Under the pieces are notes generated by a model. That model searched no databases. It saw only the letters and a list, made by a program, of their open reading frames with translations, and was not told the origin of the DNA. Below are positions 35,745 through 47,628 of a DNA stretch of 64,000 nt, piece by piece (position 1 is the stretch's first letter; the number at the start of each line of letters is the position of its first letter). The DNA is from Candidatus Aenigmatarchaeota archaeon (GTDB taxonomy: Archaea > Aenigmatarchaeota > Aenigmatarchaeia > CG10238-14 > SCSR01), in assembly GCA_039090665.1 (NCBI GenBank), contig JAWCSL010000001.1, forward strand, positions 1 to 64,000. Direction: 5' to 3'. The translations under genes and the position numbers were made by a program.

Positions 35745-35851
35745 GCTGGCGTGGATTAGCCTGGCTAAATCGCGGCGCTCATAGCATCTATGAGCTTTGA
35801 TAAAGGATGAAAGAAACGCCGAGATCGCGGGTTCAAATCCCGCCGCCAGCA
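35745..35851 (+). tRNA. tRNA-Met(CAT), probably elongator, with 32-nt intron at 37/38 (35784-35815)
   Basis: acceptor GCTGGCG/CGCCAGC; anticodon arm CGGCG-CTCATA^A-CGCCG; GGTTCAAATCC T-arm. Confidence 0.9.
35784..35815 (+). ncRNA. tRNA-Met intron carrying a box D'/C' guide for C34
   Basis: CTATGAGC pairs with GCTCATAG (35777-84); TTGA and ATGAAAG boxes; N+5 = C34. Confidence 0.75.
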
Positions 35852-38703: not shown

Positions 38704-39603
38704 TACTGAGTTATATTATTTATTTGCTCATGGGTCTTGGCGTTGGGCTTTTGATCAAGTCAAACAAGACATGAGATGAAATAGCCTATTCTGACTCATG
38801 AGATATTGGCCTGAAGTGAAAGAGCTTCAGGTAGGTTGATTGGTGAAACCTAGAGGTAGGGCCCGCCAATTCTGGTTGATCCCGCCAGAGGCCACTGCTA
38901 TCCGGCTTCGACTAAGCCATGCGAGTCGAGAGGGGAAAGCCCTCGGCGCACTGCTCCGTAATACACAGTCAACCTACCCTTAGCTGGGGGATAATCCCGG
39001 GAAACTGGGGCTAATACCCCATAGGTGCTAGGTACTGGAAGGTCCTAGCGCCGAAAGCTCCGGCGGCTAAGGATGGGACTGTGGCCTATCAGCTTGTTGT
39101 GGAGGTAAAGGCTCCACAAGGCGATAACGGGTACGGGCTATGGAAGTAGGAGCCCGGAGATGGACTCTGAGACATGAGTCCAGGTACTACGGTACGCAGC
39201 AGGCGCGAAAACTTCTCAATGCTCGCAAGAGCGAAGAGGGAAGCCGGAGTGCCCTTGCTCTGCAAGGGCTTTTGCGGTCTGAAAACGGGACCGCGAATAA
39301 GGGGTGGGTAAGACGGGTGCCAGCCGCCGCGGTAATACCCGCGCCCCGAGTGGTGGCCACGATTATTGGGCCTAAAGCGTCCGTAGCCGGTCTGGTAAGT
39401 CCTCAGTGAAATCCTCTAGCAAACTAGAGGGCTTGCTGGGGATACTGCCAGACTTGAGACTGGGAGGGGGCAGGGGTACTCCCAGGGTAGGGGTGAAATC
39501 CTGTAATCCTGGGGGGACCACCTGTGGCGAAGGCGCCTGCCTGGAACAGGTCTGACGGTGAGGGACGAAAGCTAGGGGAGCGATCGGGATTAGATACCCC
39601 GGT

Positions 39604-39682
39604 ACACGAGGTTGGGTATCTTCTGATTTAAAGATGAAGAAAAATCCCAACTCAAGCTAGGATTTCCTAACTCGTGCGGGAA
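39604..39682 (+). ncRNA. 16S BHB intron 1 (after Ec U801) with K-loop and antisense elements
   Basis: CCCG/CGGG helix, GTA and AAA bulges; removal restores GATACCCCGGTAGTCC. Confidence 0.9.
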
Positions 39683-40082
39683 AGTCCTAGCCGTAAACGA
39701 TGCCCGCTTGGTGTTGCAAGCTTCTCGGGAGCTTGCAGTGCCGAAGCGTAGGTGTTAAGCGGGCCGCCTGGGGAGTACGCCCGCAAGGGTGAAACTTAAG
39801 GGAATTGGCGGGGGAGCACACAAGGGGTGGGCGTTGCGGTTCAATTGGATTCAACGCCGGAAATCTTACCAGGGCCGACGGCAGGATGAAGGTCAGTCTG
39901 AAGGGCTTACCAGACGAGCCGAGAGGTGGTGCATGGCCATCGTCAGCTCGTACCGTGAGGCGTGCGCTTAAGTGCGTTAACGAGCGAGACCCACACCCCA
40001 TGTTGCTAACTGCTTCTCCGGAAGCAGTGCACTCATGGGGGACCGCTGGCGATAAGCCAGAGGAAGGAGTGGGCGACGGTAG

Positions 40083-40170
40083 ACAGGTAAAAGGCTCAAG
40101 ACCGATTCATGTGAAAAAAAGATGAGCATGAATATCGCCCAGAGCCGTACATGTCTTTTACCTGACCGAA
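40083..40170 (+). ncRNA. 16S BHB intron 2 (after Ec 1197), H/ACA-like hairpin
   Basis: CGGT/ACCG helix, AGA and AAG bulges; removal restores GACGGTAGGTCCGTATG. Confidence 0.9.
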
Positions 40171-40451
40171 GTCCGTATGCCCCGAATGCCCTGGGCCACA
40201 CGCGACGCACAATGCGCGCCACAATGGGATGCGACCCCGAAAGGGGAAGCAAAGCCCCTAAAAGCGCGCTCAGTTCGGATCGAGGGCTGTAACTCGTCCT
40301 CGTGAAGCTGGAATCCCTAGTAAGCGAACGTCATCATCGTTCGCTGAATACGTCCCTGCTCCTTGCACACACTGCCCGTCAAGCCAATCGAGCGGAACTC
40401 CATCGAGGCTTGCGATGAGCAAGTCGAGTTGGAGTTCTGTGAGAGGGGCTA

Positions 40452-40557
40452 ATCTTGGGGGTCCAGAAAAAAATAATATGAAAGAATTGGCTTGACTCTG
40501 ATGTGATGATGAGATGGAGGTGAGTTGATTGCTTGTATGGACCTCCCAAGAGCCTAA
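40452..40557 (+). ncRNA. 16S intron 3 (between Ec A1492/A1493) containing a full box C/D sRNA
   Basis: GGGC/GCCT helix, TAA and AAA bulges; removal restores GGGGCTAAGTCG; C, D', C' and D boxes present. Confidence 0.9.
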
Positions 40558-40832
40558 AGTCGCCACAAGGTAGCCGTACGGGAACGTGCGGCTGGATCAC
40601 CTCCTTACGTGCAACCCTACCTCAGGCACCATAAACAACCCTACCTGAAAGAATTTTCCTTTTTATCAGTACCAAAGTAAAAAAAATTAAGCTCGAATCT
40701 TTACCATTATCCTCAAATTTTTCAATTCTTTTCTTAAACTGTTTTCAAAAAGCTTGTGTTAACTAAAAACTAAAATAAATGAGAGAAAAATAGCTACCGA
40801 GCTTATAAAATAATAAAAATTGGGAAACCATT

Positions 40833-42851
40833 TCAAGCAAGAATAGCATATCTAGCGATCAAAGAAGCAAAGACAGAAGCTGTTAAAGACATGACTGTTA
40901 TCATTGTGTTCAAACTTGGTCCTGCTGTGTCCTTGAAAGGATCACCAACAGTATCACCAACAACAGCAGCCTTATGAGCTTCTGAACCTTTTCCACCAAA
41001 AGCCCCTTCTTCTATCAGCTTCTTAGCATTGTCCCAAGCTCCACCAGAATTTGCCATGAAAAGAGCAAAAATTATTCCTGTGATTATACTTCCTGCTAAA
41101 AAGCCCGCTAAAGCCTCTTTTCCCAAAATGAAGCCAACAAGCAAAGGTGCAGCTATAGCAAGCAAACAAGGAAGCATAAGCTCTCTTAAAGCACCTTTAG
41201 TTGCTATGTCCACGCATTTGGCATAATCAGGTTTAGCTTTTCCTTTCATCAATCCAGGAATTTCTTTAAATTGCCTTCTCACTTCTTCTATCATACGAAA
41301 AGCATTTCTCCCTACTGCCAAAATCAATAAAGCCGAAATCACAGGAGGCATCATGCTACCAATAAAAGTCCCAACTATAACCTTAGGCTCCATCAAGTTT
41401 ATTGAAAACAAACCAGTAGTCAAATCTTTCCTTATTTCAACAACTTCAGCGTAAGCCCCAAGCAAAGCCAAAACTGTTAAAGCTGCAGCACCAATCGCGA
41501 AACCTTTTGTTATTGCTTTTGTTGTATTTCCCAAAGCATCAAGTCTGTCTGTAATTTCCAAGACTTTGCCTTTCAAACCAGCTTGTTCCGCTATTCCTTT
41601 TGCATTATCGACAATTGGACCATAAGCATCAGAAGAAATTATCATTCCAACTATTGCTAACATACCCACTGCTGCTATAGCCACACCATAAAGATTACTT
41701 ACACCGAAAGCCCCTGCAAGATGCCAAGCTGCAAGCATTGCTACACAAATTCCGATGATTGAAGGTACAATGCTCAAGATTCCATAAGAAAAGCCTGAGA
41801 GGATGTTGATAGCAGCTCCTGTTTTTGCAGCTTCTGCTGTTTTTTTCACAGGAGCTTTATCGATTGATGTATAGTAGTTTGTTGTTATTCCTATAATCAT
41901 GCCAGATATAAGTCCAGCTAAAGTTGGTAAGAGAACACCAAAAGTTTGGTTTCCAAGTTCAAGAGCTTGAATCACAAAAAATGTTAAAATTGCAAAAATA
42001 AAACAAGTGGAAAAGGTTCCAACATTCAACGCAAGATTAGGGTTCTTTTTCTTGGCCAAATTGACGAAAATTAAACCAAGAAGAGAGGAAAAAATCCCAG
42101 CAGCTGCTATCAACAAAGGCAAGAAGATAAAGCTTGGAGCAATTGCTTTCCCAATTATCATGGCAGCTATGATGCTTGCTATGTAAGAATCTATCAAGTC
42201 AGCACCCATTCCTGCAACATCACCCACATTATCACCCACATTATCAGCAATAACAGCAGGATTTCTTGGGTCATCTTCAGGAATTTCCATTTCCACTTTT
42301 CCCACCAAATCAGCTCCAATATCTGCTGTTTTAGTGTAAATGCCACCACCAGCTTTTGCAAACAAAGCCAAAGCACTTGCACCAAAGCTGAAACCCAAAA
42401 CAATCTCAGGATCTTGGTAAATTTGGTATAAAATGCTTATGCCAAGCAAAGCTATGCCAACTATCATTAAACCCATGATGGCCCCACCATAAAAACCAAC
42501 AGAAAAAGCTTTTGCTAATCCTTTTCTTGCTGCATTTGTAACCCTAACATTTGTTTTAACTGCTGCCAGCATTCCAAAGTAGCTTGCTATAGCAGTGGAA
42601 AAAGAGCCAAGCAAGTAGGCTAGAGCTATGTCTGGGCTTAAGAAGAGAAAAATAAGAGTTGTCATGATGACAACGAAAATTGCCAAATAAAGATTTTGCC
42701 TCTTCAAGTAAGCTTTTGCTCCCACTTTTATCGCTTCAGAAATTTCTTCCATTTTTTTGGTTCCCGGGCTTTGTTTGCTCACATGGAAATACAAGTAACA
42801 AGCTGTGAAGATCGAAGCTAAGCCTGCGATTGTTGGGATTGAAGCAAACAT
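40833..42851 (-). CDS. hppA: membrane-integral pyrophosphatase (GNTTKA, K+-independent type)
   Basis: [39 protein letters not shown]. Confidence 0.96.
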
Positions 42852-43786: not shown

Positions 43787-43858
43787 GGGCCGGTAGATCA
43801 ATGGTAGATCGCCTCGCTTGCAACGAGGAGGCTCCGGGTTCAAATCCCGGCCGGTCCA
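43787..43858 (+). tRNA. tRNA-Ala(TGC)
   Basis: GGGCCGG/CCGGTCC acceptor with G3:U70; CCTCG-CTTGCAA-CGAGG. Confidence 0.96.
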
Positions 43859-44141: not shown

Positions 44142-46181
44142 ATAAGATGACACTACCACAGGATCAAGGAGGTCACTAAGGCCTAACAAGCTGACCCCAC
44201 TTGGTGGATAGCTTGGCTTCGGAGCCGAAGAAGTACGTGGCAAGCTGCGATAAGCCTGGGGTAGCCGCATGCAGGCGTAGATCCCAGGATCTATGAATGC
44301 GAATCGCTGGCTTCGGCCAACTCCGAAAGGAGGGGGAACGCGCTGAATTGAAGCATCTTAGTAGGCGCAGGAAAAGAAATCAAATTGAGATGCCGTTAGT
44401 AGGGGCGACCGAAAGCGGCAGAGGGCAAACCGAACTGGTTGGCGAAGAGCCAAACAGGATGTGGAGTTGTAGGACCTGTGTCCTTCCTATCCTAGCCGAC
44501 CTGAAGTCTGCTGGAAAGCAGCGCCAAAGAGGGTGATAGCCCCGTAAGGGAAGGCTAGGAGGAAGATGGCAGGTATCCTGAGTACCATTTCCTGGATGGG
44601 AAGTGGGAAGCTGGGTGAATTAACATCCAACCCTAAATACTCCCGAAGTCCGATAGCGAACTAGTATGGTGACAGAAAGCTGAAAAGCACCGCGAAAGCG
44701 GGGTGAAAAGAGCTTGAAACCAAGTGGGGATAGTCAGACACGGCCCGGAAGGTGCTCCTTCGAATGAAATCCGAAAGGAGAGTAAGAGAAGGAGCTTACA
44801 GGGTCGTGTCGTCCGTGCGGAAACACGGGGCAGGGAGTTTGTCTCAGTGGTGAGGTTAACTTGCTTTCACAAGGTAGCCGGAGCGAAAGCGATTAGCCCG
44901 CAACTGTTCTTTATGGACAGTGAGGGGCAGGGTATGAAAGTGCCTGAAATCACTGGGACAAGACCCGAAGCCAGGCGATCTAACCCTGGGTAAGGCGAAG
45001 TCCCTCGAAAGGGGGATGGAAGCCTGCTACCGGTGCTGAGTTACAAATCGCTCGGGTGACCTGGGGTTAGTGGTGAAAAGCCTAACGAGCCTGGCGATAG
45101 CTGGTTCCTCCCCAAATGCACGTCAGTGCAGCCTGGTCGGAGGTAGGCAATGGGGTAGAGCTACTGATTGGAAGGTCAAGGACCGAAAGGTTCAGCCTTC
45201 CTGTCAAACTCCGAATCCATTGCCACCTGAGAAGACCGGAGTGAGGGTGCTGGGGTAAGCTCGGCACTCGAAAGGGGAACAACCCAGCCTAGGGTTAAGG
45301 TCCCTAAATGCTAGCTAAACGCTGAAGGGTGTCTGAACCCTCAGACAGTAGGGCTGTAGGCTTAGAAGCAGCCATCAGATAATAAGTGCGTAACAGCTTA
45401 CCTACCGAGGGTTCGGGCCCCGAAAATGGAAGGGACTAAGCTAGCTACCGATACCCTAGACCGCGAAAGCGGGGGTAGGGAGGCGTCCTGCATGGGCAGA
45501 AGCCTCTGCGTGAGCAGGGGTGGACCGTGCAGGATTGAAGATCCTGCCGAAAGTAACAGCAAAGTTAGGTGAGAATCCTAACCACCTGAAGCCTAAGGGT
45601 TTGCCAGCAATGTTGGTCAGCTGGCAGTTAGCCGGTCCTAAGGGTGCTCTTAACCGAAGCACTCGAAAGGGAAAGCCGTTAATATTCGGCTGCCATGGGG
45701 ATACGTGCGGCGACGCAAGCCAGTTTTCCGACGCTTCGGGATAGGCAGACGCAAGCTAACTGCCGAAGTGAGCGGAGTCTCTTAATGAGGAGAAGCTCAT
45801 GAAGGCAGGAATGGCTCCTCGTATGAGGAGTTCTGCTGATTCCTGGAGCCCGTGAAAAGGAAAACTGGAAGGATTCCCCATGACCGTACCGAGAACCGAC
45901 ACAGGTAGGCTTGCCGAGAAGGCAAAGGTGTGTTGGGAGAACCCAGCCTAGGGAAATCGGCAAGTTGGCCCCGTATCTTCGGTAGAAGGGGTGCCTGTTC
46001 TCTCGCAAGGGAGAGCAGGTCGCAGTGACAAGGGGGAAGCGACTGTTTAACAAAAACGCTGGAGACCGCAAGTCCGAAAGGATGTGTACGGTCTCTGATG
46101 CCTGCCCAGTGCCGGTGTGTGAAAGCCCGGTTCAACGGGAAGAAGCCCCGGCAAACGGCGGCGGTAACTCTGACCGTCGTA

Positions 46182-46231
46182 ACTCAAGGCGGTCATTTGA
46201 TTTAATGATATTCCGCTGCCTTGGGCGGCAT
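46182..46231 (+). ncRNA. 23S intron (after Ec A1927) with D'/C' guide for H69
   Basis: GTCG/CGGC helix, TAA and ATA bulges; GGCGGTCA antisense to 46171-78. Confidence 0.85.
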
Positions 46232-46360
46232 AAGTAGCGTAATCCCTTGCCGTTTAAATGACGGCCCGTCTGAACGGCTTAACGACTTCCCCACTGTCCT
46301 GGGCTGGGACCCAGTGAACTCGCCTTTCCGGTGAATAGGCCGGAGACCTCCTGTGGGAAA

Positions 46361-46391
<31 letters not shown>

Positions 46392-46545
46392 GTGTTGTGG
46401 TAAGGTTGTGACTGCATAGAGTAGGTAGGACTCGCTATTAGGCTGAGGCTTCGGCCGAAAGCTGAGAGGAAAGTGTAACACTACCCTTTCGCAACCTTAC
46501 CGCTAACTCGAAAGAGGACAGCACCAGATGGGCAGTTCGGCTGGG

Positions 46546-46631
46546 AGTCTAGAAGTCTAAATGAGGAGTCCCTTAAGTTATGATTTTTTATGATTAAGGG
46601 CATACGAACCGAAAGGCTTCTAGACCAGCAA
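46546..46631 (+). ncRNA. 23S P-loop intron (Ec G2252/G2253) containing a full box C/D sRNA targeting 16S
   Basis: GCTG/CAGC helix, GGA and AAG bulges; removal restores GGCTGGGGCGG. Confidence 0.93.
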
Positions 46632-46686
46632 GCGGTACGCCCTCGGTAAAGGATCGAGGGCGCCCAAAGGTCAGCTCATCCGGGTC

Positions 46687-46775
46687 ATGGTAGAGTCTAG
46701 TAAATGATTGGACCGTTCCAGAATGATCTTAATGATTTCTGAGGTAGCTGATGAGAATAGGCTCTACCACCCGCA
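46687..46775 (+). ncRNA. 23S H84 intron (after Ec ~C2306) containing a box C/D sRNA
   Basis: CGGG/CCCG helix, TCA and CAA bulges; removal restores CCGGGTCAGAAATCCGG. Confidence 0.9.
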
Positions 46776-46919
46776 AGAAATCCGGAGTAGAGTGTAAGCG
46801 CAAAAGCTGGCCTGACTGGATTCCGCAAAGCGAGGAATCCAGCCGCGAAAGCGTGGGCTAGCGATACTTCGGTTCCTCTTAATGGGGGCCGGAGGTATCA
46901 GAAAAGCTACCTCGGGGAT

Positions 46920-46973
46920 AAACTAGCTAGGGCTGATTAAATTATTTTTCTTCATATCTAGCTAGTTCCCTAA
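46920..46973 (+). other. 23S hairpin intron after Ec U2449
   Basis: GGGG/CCCT helix, ATA and AAA bulges, 10-bp AACTAGCTAG stem; removal restores GGGGATAA. Confidence 0.88.
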
Positions 46974-47001
46974 AATGGGCCCGTGGCCGGCGAAAGCCCA
47001 C

Positions 47002-47072
47002 TGCTCGAAGGGGTTTTTCGTCCCAAAGATAGCGAGCCTCGGGTTCTGAACTCGAGCCCTTCGCGCGGGTAA
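47002..47072 (+). ncRNA. 23S H89 intron (after Ec ~2477) with antisense elements to the PTC
   Basis: GCCC/GGGT helix, ACT and AAA bulges; removal restores GCCCACATTGACCC. Confidence 0.88.
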
Positions 47073-47628
47073 ATTGACCCGGCGCGTTGGTGCGTCGATG
47101 TTGGCTCCCCCTCTCCTGGCCGTGCAGCAGCGGCCAAGGGTACAGGTGCCCACTGGTTAAAAGGGGACGCTAGCTGAGTTCAGAACGTCGTGAGACAGTT
47201 CGGTCGCTATCTACAGGAGGTGCTGGTCGTCTGACCGGAAGGAAGGGTTAGTACGAAAGGAACACCCTTCCGTGGCCTCTGGTCTACCGGTTGTCCATTT
47301 GGCATCGCCGGGCAGCCAAGCCATACGTGGATAAGAGCTGAATGCATCTAAGCTCGAAACCACCCGGAAAAATAGACGACCACTCTTGCTACTGGTGCGC
47401 AAGCATCGGTGGCAAGACGAAGGCCCCTGTAGACTACAGGTTTGATAGGGGAGAGGTGTAAGCCTCAAGCTTTCGAGCGAGAGGCGAGCCTGCTCCTACT
47501 AAAAGCCTGAGTTGTTAGGCCTTGATAAGCTCCTTGATCCTGTGGTAGTGTGAAAAAATTCTGATTCTCCCAAAAATATATACTAGAGTAGAGAAAACTT
47601 ATTTAATTGTCACTACATAGTAGTTATT

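Follow-up and report, generated by a model that had tools for sequence, protein, structure and literature searches.

Introns in archaeal rRNA are usually regarded as selfish or neutral passengers. Those of the bulge-helix-bulge (BHB) type are cleaved after the second nucleotide of each bulge. In the pre-tRNA-Trp intron of Euryarchaeota, a box C/D guide inside the intron forms a complete RNP that methylates two nucleotides, and in the group I introns of rRNA an internal guide sequence (IGS) pairs with exon bases at the splice site as part of catalysis. BHB introns have been described in the 16S and 23S rRNA of Thermoproteales and Desulfurococcales (PMC4496867), and in yeast the box A element of snR190 is antisense to helix 73 and serves as a chaperone and not as a methylation guide (PMC8536666). 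Among the open-access papers searched, no description was found of BHB rRNA introns that are antisense to distant rRNA strands. The small 23S intron analysed here (intron B) has this composition: besides a few bases needed for splicing, it is mainly antisense to strands of the same pre-rRNA.

The intron lies in a 64,000-nucleotide stretch of a Candidatus Aenigmatarchaeota genome (the window), which carries an archaeal rRNA locus (Table 1). The genome comprises 620,606 bases in 15 contigs and is 90.6% complete; its contig C12 encodes the splicing-endonuclease domain PF01974 within a 191-aa open frame (94.8 bits). The 16S gene is separated from the tRNA-Ala and 23S genes by an H+-pyrophosphatase gene of opposite orientation (40833-42851; 672 aa; PF03030, 818.8 bits), and the rRNA genes therefore do not form one compact operon. 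Elsewhere in the window, a tRNA spanning 107 nt at 35745-35851 (+), matched by Rfam with 53.1 bits and unreported by ARAGORN, is probably an intron-containing tRNA gene. The 23S gene is ~300 nt longer than the Rfam model, and according to cmscan its final third contains three insertions, with lengths of 88, 93 and '130' nt; comparison with relatives resolves the '130-nt' insertion into two elements, 46920-46973 and intron B.

Table 1. Features of the rRNA locus, of intron B and of its targets, in window coordinates.
Feature	Position	Strand	Sequence	Pairing or placement
16S rRNA gene	38869-40605			archaeal rRNA locus in window
tRNA-Ala	43787-43858			archaeal rRNA locus in window
23S rRNA gene	44179-47522			archaeal rRNA locus in window
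Target I	46355-46377	+	GGGAAACGAAGACCCCGTAGAGC	23S ~2051-2073 (Rfam alignment)
Exon strand, central 4-bp BHB helix	46996-46999	+	GCCC	pairs with 47067-47070
5' 3-nt bulge	47000-47002	+	ACT	cut after second nt, 47001|47002 (read from sequence)
BHB intron B, 71 nt	47002-47072	+		terminal loop of 23S helix 89; exact insertion relative to intron-less relatives
Helix h' 5' strand	47003-47012	+	GCTCGAAGGG	pairs with 47057-47066 at 9/10 positions
Antisense segment I	47003-47024	+		against 46355-46377: 18 Watson-Crick and 1 G.U pairs, 2 mismatches, 2 gaps
Antisense arm II	47027-47035	+	AGATAGCGA	9/9, exact reverse complement of 47204-47212
Antisense arm III	47043-47053	+	GTTCTGAACTC	11/11 to 47176-47186; within hairpin 47038-47056
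Helix h' 3' strand	47057-47066	+	CCCTTCGCGC	intron-internal helix
Intron strand, central BHB helix	47067-47070	+	GGGT	pairs with 46996-46999
3' 3-nt bulge	47071-47073	+	AAA	cut after second nt, 47072|47073
Target III	47176-47186	+		23S ~2581-2591, PTC ring strand including U2585
Target II	47204-47212	+		23S ~2609-2617, ring strand leading into helix 73 3' strand

The insertion is absent from 16 related loci, which read ..GAAAGCCCAC|ATTGACC.., and is therefore dispensable; it is present in 40 loci with lengths of 28-144 nt. In the window it falls between ..GAAAGCCCAC and ATTGACCCGG.. in the terminal loop of helix 89. The central BHB helix is 95.7% paired in an alignment of 35 homologues (A1; columns 7-10 with 98-101), with compensatory C:G to U:A changes at two pairs in 5/35 and 8/35 sequences, and its covariation score of 0.392 (0.199 in shuffles) was reached by none of 500 shuffles. 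When the pairing was slid by 1-3 columns as a control, it fell to 26-38%. Helix h' is present in the MFE fold of the intron alone, and its first two pairs are 92.9% paired in the same alignment. The MFE fold of 46984-47090 did not recover the BHB motif (z = -1.6), single-sequence folding being uninformative here.

Joined exons (47001>47073) are found in RNA contigs of runs X16 (depth 79) and X17 (depth 1230). The joined X17 contig differs from the window at 9 of 130 exon bases and so comes from a relative. The joint is absent from the contigs of DNA run X3, in which one contig is identical to the window over 46363-47094 and contains no intron joints. In the RNA-library run X11, a contig (record 4, 46979-47094, depth 65.7) holds a G005-like insertion unspliced between the exons. 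All of these RNA and DNA runs consist of assembled contigs, from which levels, ends and the organism's own spliced form are not readable, and zero cover of a part in RNA runs was not taken as evidence. Because the BHB helix covaries, the genome encodes the PF01974 endonuclease and RNA contigs contain the joint, we treat 47002-47072, which the earlier note on this sequence had already called an intron, as a genuine BHB intron, and we infer its excision in its own organism.

Several other introns lie nearby. The second mini-intron, of 54 nt (46920-46973), is 28 nt upstream of intron B in the peptidyl-transferase centre (PTC) strand GGGGAT|AATGGG. It forms a separate BHB, in which GGGG at 46914-46917 pairs with CCCT at 46968-46971, with bulges ATA and AAA, and its joint (46919>46974) is seen in RNA contigs of three runs and is absent from DNA run X3. 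At the same site, genome G005 (locus L003) has an intron of ~570 nt with a broken LAGLIDADG_3 gene. G005, a 1.7-Mb bin, contains three different 23S fragments (contigs C14, C29 and C50), and the helix 89 intron differs among them, being genus-like in one, G017-like in another and g46-like in the third; the bin therefore mixes organisms. Further upstream in the window, an 86-nt 23S intron (46546-46631) is left out of RNA contigs of all three RNA runs (joint 46545>46632), and a 90-nt intron (46687-46776) out of RNA contigs of X11 and X16 (joint 46686>46777). The latter has box C/D-like motifs, UGAUGA at 46749-46754, CUGA at 46739-46742 and AUGAU(U/C) at 46704-46709, 46723-46728 and 46732-46737, and may be an intron-borne guide RNA. 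Many relatives carry further introns in the PTC ring strand (~2584, after ..GCTGGGT; L017, L018, L021, L024, L026 and L027) and in the helix 93 loop (~2598, after ..GTCGTGA; L004, L005, L020, L028 and L029), several of which share ..ACGA..T-rich..GGATGA.. motifs resembling k-turn or C/D elements.

The earlier note had described arms II and III, and both were found to be exact reverse complements of their targets at the coordinates it gave, in the order expected for one single antisense strand. Taken by themselves, the matches in the window are only modestly above chance. Among 2000 dinucleotide shuffles of the 71 nt, compared with the mature LSU and SSU, the probability of a longest run of at least 9 was 0.73 and of at least 11 was 0.083, and two runs of at least 9 within 60 nt of the target occurred in 34. 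The shuffled controls which the note had proposed thus lend the window itself modest weight, but the relatives carry the signal. A generic gapped antisense alignment of four 23S introns against the mature LSU placed none of them above shuffles (intron B, 39 against a mean of 40.3), so gapped local scoring cannot detect the arms. Calculated duplex energies in the window are -29.0 kcal/mol for segment I, -15.3 for arm II and -20.3 for arm III, a sum of about -65, compared with -24.5 for the intron alone and -0.6 for native helix 73 over its 7 PTC-proximal nt. When the entire mature LSU is searched, the best site for arm II (taken as 47025-47037) is 47201-47213, a result matched by 2 of 300 shuffles.

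Arm II changes together with lineage-specific substitutions in its target at positions 2611, 2612 and 2613 in several separate lineages, the genomes being related and not independent and the events being counted by genus and family labels rather than on a tree. Covariation at 2611, another check proposed in the earlier note, is thus present and extends to the two following positions. The target (~2608-2617) reads GTCGCTATCT in most of the family and varies in a few lineages, where the intron follows. In G008 (g2) the target GTCGTTATCT is matched by AGATAACGACCGA in the intron over 13-14 nt; in G057 and G062 (g6) TCGCAAT is matched by ATTGCGA; in G053 (g31) ACTATC by GATAGT; and in G108, G109 and contig C50 of G005 (family f5, g46) (G)TCACTAT by ATAGTGA(C). 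G116 (f5, g26) combines the standard target with an intron reading AGATAGTGAC, a G.U intermediate. By duplex energy, 32/38 loci pair best with their own target variant, and exact runs of at least 7 with the own target occur in 22/38, where 200 shuffle sets predict 0.78 with a maximum of 5. The arm is weak or lost in G012, G056, G060, G061, G058 and G024. In the contiguous MAFFT alignment (A2) arm II falls in columns that differ between genera; a G.U-tolerant 'best register' table contained spurious registers in ~8 loci and was not used.

The intron has a third and larger arm, overlooked in the earlier note. Whole-intron RNAduplex calculations against the whole LSU kept returning 46308-46384, in duplexes that were unrealistically long and gapped, and this was the lead to segment I. 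When each intron is aligned with the reverse complement of its own rRNA, about two-thirds of its length, counted from the 5' end, proves complementary to ~2051-2073. This target runs from the PTC-proximal part of the 5' strand of helix 73 through the ring strand G2058-C2063 to where the 5' strand of helix 74 begins. Segment I forms 11-20 Watson-Crick pairs with its own 2051-2073 in 25/26 loci, with 0-3 G.U pairs and 0-4 mismatches, and exact runs of at least 7 are found in 19/26 loci (shuffles predict 1.9, with a maximum of 6). Position 2059 is paired with the intron in all 25 aligned genomes, as A:U in 13, as U:A in 11 and as G:C in one (G113), and many introns place a U opposite G2061. The segment follows the change of 2057 from C to U in g46 (G108, G109 and contig C50 of G005) and that of 2056 from A to G in G008. 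In both g46 and G008 the native partners 2611 and 2612 and arm II also change, so that four positions move together. The own variant is the best among eight target variants in 13/26 loci. In the window the segment is degenerate, with a longest exact run of 5; target I is its best duplex site over the whole mature LSU, and 35 of 300 shuffles reach an equally good site somewhere in the LSU.

Arm III is confined to the window genus and three other lineages. Its 9-nt core, GTTCTGAAC, which matches ~2583-2591, is kept in all five genus loci that reach the intron, and it recurs at other intron positions in G010, over 8 nt in G053 and over 7 nt in G054. Apart from the genus-specific A2582, its target does not vary within the order and so offers arm III no changes to follow. 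The full 11/11 match exists only in the window, the one sequence in which G2581 and A2582 face complementary bases; the pairing with lineage-specific A2582 to which the earlier note had drawn attention is not a feature of the genus, the other four members having A or G opposite this position. The arm III core is near-palindromic, in line with the note's remark that this target is semi-palindromic. The stem of the hairpin varies with compensation among the five genus sequences, and the conservation of arm III may reflect the hairpin alone. For arm III (taken as 47040-47056), an unrelated site at 45408-45423 gives an equal duplex energy, and 46 of 300 shuffles do as well. A further match, between TTTTCGTCCC and 16S 39562-39571, had also been proposed; it holds at 9/10 positions and is not kept in relatives, which read TTTTCATCCC, 9-mers are expected by chance, and the stretch belongs to segment I, antisense to 23S ~2051-2073.

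Two observations on this region stand apart from the antisense pairing. Anticodon loops follow the pattern pyrimidine, U, three bases, purine, A, and the 7-nt loop of the arm III hairpin (TTCTGAA, 47044-47050) has this form, possibly by coincidence. At 47177 (A2582) the PTC strand reads GAGTTCAGAAC only in the window genus (7/7 loci: L001-L005, L007 and L014); all other loci showing the strand read GGGTT(C/T)AGAAC, and the genus change adjoins U2584/U2585.

The absence of canonical C/D or ACA boxes, noted earlier, holds throughout the intron. There is no UGAUGA in the 71 nt of 47002-47072; the sole CUGA (47046-47049) is inside arm III, 10 nt past the end of arm II, whereas a C/D guide would stop 5 nt short of D/D'. 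No ACA trinucleotide occurs in the same interval, and the targets are paired continuously without the 2-nt gap of an H/ACA guide. A search of the intron against Rfam at E<=5 returned no snoRNA or sRNA match, only a chance RNAI match (E=2.1), and inspection by eye for k-turn and C/D patterns was negative, with none conserved among relatives. The suggestion of a decayed guide RNA accordingly finds no support in either boxes or Rfam matches.

A pattern scan of 370 genomes of the class revealed further introns at the same insertion point; of ten that were examined, nine had recognisable rRNA context. G224, whose intron resembles the family core, was left out because the stretch analysed did not show its upstream rRNA strand. 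In G160 (f17), TCTCTTCCC is the exact antisense of the genome's own GGGAAGAGA, and ATAGAC that of its own GTCTAT; in G123 (f8), TCTTCTCT and GAGAGT face its own AGAGAAGA and ACTCTC. G321 (f38) has a partial match, AGAACAA against its own TTGTTCT, and partial arm matches are also seen in G339 and G282. The introns at this site in G315, G327 and G336 have no arms. As these introns read, the antisense design is found again with other sequences, and an intron can occupy the site without it.

All three targets are central ring strands of domain V, on its helix 73 side. The earlier note's picture of arms clamping both sides of helix 93 is thus right in that the arms are real, but what they mainly cover is the helix 73 end of the PTC ring. 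We consider it somewhat likelier to be true than not that this is a box-less antisense intron which acts in cis and keeps hold of the ring, at its helix 73 end, up to the moment of its own excision or displacement; a folding-chaperone type of antisense RNA, as the note had suggested, is still the best reading, and such a function would follow from duplexes presumed to form in vivo. The helix 73 5' strand is transcribed ~640 nt before the intron and its 3' partner ~140 nt after. Once transcribed, the intron would bind the waiting 5' strand (~2051-2066) and the ring strand, and ~140 nt later it would capture the emerging 3' strand (~2608-2617). The ring would thereby be held open and protected with its two sides together, the intron serving as a placeholder or splint, and the native helix would form only once the intron had been cut by the splicing endonuclease or displaced. 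Since the intron would pair with the ring strands until its removal, unspliced 23S would be without an active centre. In 50S structures the tip of helix 89 is far from the ring, and the proposed pairing must therefore precede compaction. One counterpoint to this mechanism is that part of target I may already be paired, as transcription reaches the 3' strand of helix 74 ahead of the intron. That there is a family of archaeal rRNA introns which act as built-in, protein-independent assembly chaperones or timers is a more tentative proposal, to which we give rather less than an even chance.

The complementarity and covariation would apply equally if the excised intron acted in trans on other pre-23S molecules, as a snoRNA-type chaperone or as a modification guide near 2058-2062/2609-2617. 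After splicing it would then persist as a small antisense RNA, probably circularised like other archaeal BHB introns. Action in trans has a precedent in snR190, which works in trans on helix 73 (PMC8536666), yet the lack of C/D or H/ACA boxes and of a k-turn pattern speaks against a guide, no free or circular intron is seen among RNA contigs that could miss such an RNA, and the position in cis makes binding far likelier before excision. We regard action in trans as unlikely. Quite unlikely, in our view, is that the arms are the functionless remnant of inverted rDNA copies made by template switching or gene conversion, with the covariation arising from the copying. Near-perfect antisense over 14-24 nt in some arms (14/14 in L029, 18/22 in L024), the dispensability of the intron in the 16 loci without it and the direct repeat CGAGCC (47033-47038 and 47053-47058) flanking the hairpin in the window would all fit such an origin. 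Copying would be expected to leave long perfect tracts, whereas here fixed bulges and G.U-compatible changes, such as AGATAGTGAC in G116, interrupt tracts that are short (6-14 nt); moreover, two rRNA segments ~550 nt apart lie side by side in an order that fits pairing, and further families show the design again in another sequence.

With physical pairing no different from that of the chaperone reading, the arms might instead be a self-serving splicing aid, which would keep domain V unfolded and the tip of helix 89 accessible to the endonuclease without benefit to the ribosome. The helix 89-loop intron site becomes buried in the 50S architecture, which suits this idea, as does the relative rarity of arm-less introns at the site. 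Those that do exist (G315, G327, G336 and G024) show that arms are unneeded for persistence or splicing, and we think a pure splicing aid very unlikely, although sequence data alone do not separate it from a chaperone or timer and give no choice between an aid to folding, a timing role and the intron's own excision. It is highly improbable that the insertion is an expansion segment retained in mature 23S. The X11 RNA-library contig with the insertion between its exons would be explained in this way, but it could be a precursor or DNA carry-over, and the BHB geometry with its covarying exon-intron pairs, the junction exactly at the predicted cut sites and the joined form, present among the RNA contigs of X16 and X17 and missing from DNA run X3, all argue for removal. 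The cis-acting antisense intron remains the reading that we prefer.

To our knowledge, archaea have very few known ribosome assembly factors, and the DPANN lineages, with genomes of 0.6 Mb, have even fewer. If the preferred reading is true, no earlier case would be known of an antisense element encoded in cis and acting on the catalytic core of the large subunit, and the intron would link BHB splicing with chaperoning of the snoRNA type and with rRNA intron evolution. The formation of long-range rRNA helices without the eukaryotic snoRNA and helicase machinery would also become testable: arms and targets are known to single-nucleotide precision, and nature already supplies compensatory variants. 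Under the more tentative proposal of a whole family of such chaperones or timers, these introns would be the cis counterpart of snR190 and other eukaryotic snoRNA chaperones. They would then explain the persistence of introns at the most conserved rRNA sites in genome-reduced archaea and suggest how antisense assembly RNAs acting in trans could plausibly have evolved from introns.

Like the archaeal BHB rRNA introns already described, the window intron is small, has no ORF, interrupts a conserved functional rRNA site and has a 4-bp helix with two 3-nt bulges, of the kind that is cut by the tRNA-splicing endonuclease. Those introns are described with a homing-endonuclease gene or with nothing, whereas the window intron is mostly antisense to distant host rRNA, with which it co-evolves. 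The closest cis example is the pre-tRNA-Trp intron, which likewise pairs with its own host RNA before splicing; in contrast to it, the window intron has no C or D box and no k-turn, and its duplexes of 9-20 bp are aimed at helix-forming strands. The IGS of group I introns resembles it in that an intron pairs with an rRNA exon and that competition with native rRNA folds affects splicing, but the arms here pair 130-640 nt from the splice sites, and splicing would be carried out by protein. In how the window intron would work, its nearest analogue is snR190, which serves to fold the PTC region, not to modify it, and has two antisense elements that join distant parts of the rRNA (PMC8536666). snR190 is a trans-acting box C/D snoRNP that is removed by the helicase Dbp7 and directs its second element to domain I (PMC8536666), whereas the window intron is part of the rRNA itself, is box-less and has both of its main arms directed to the two sides of helix 73.
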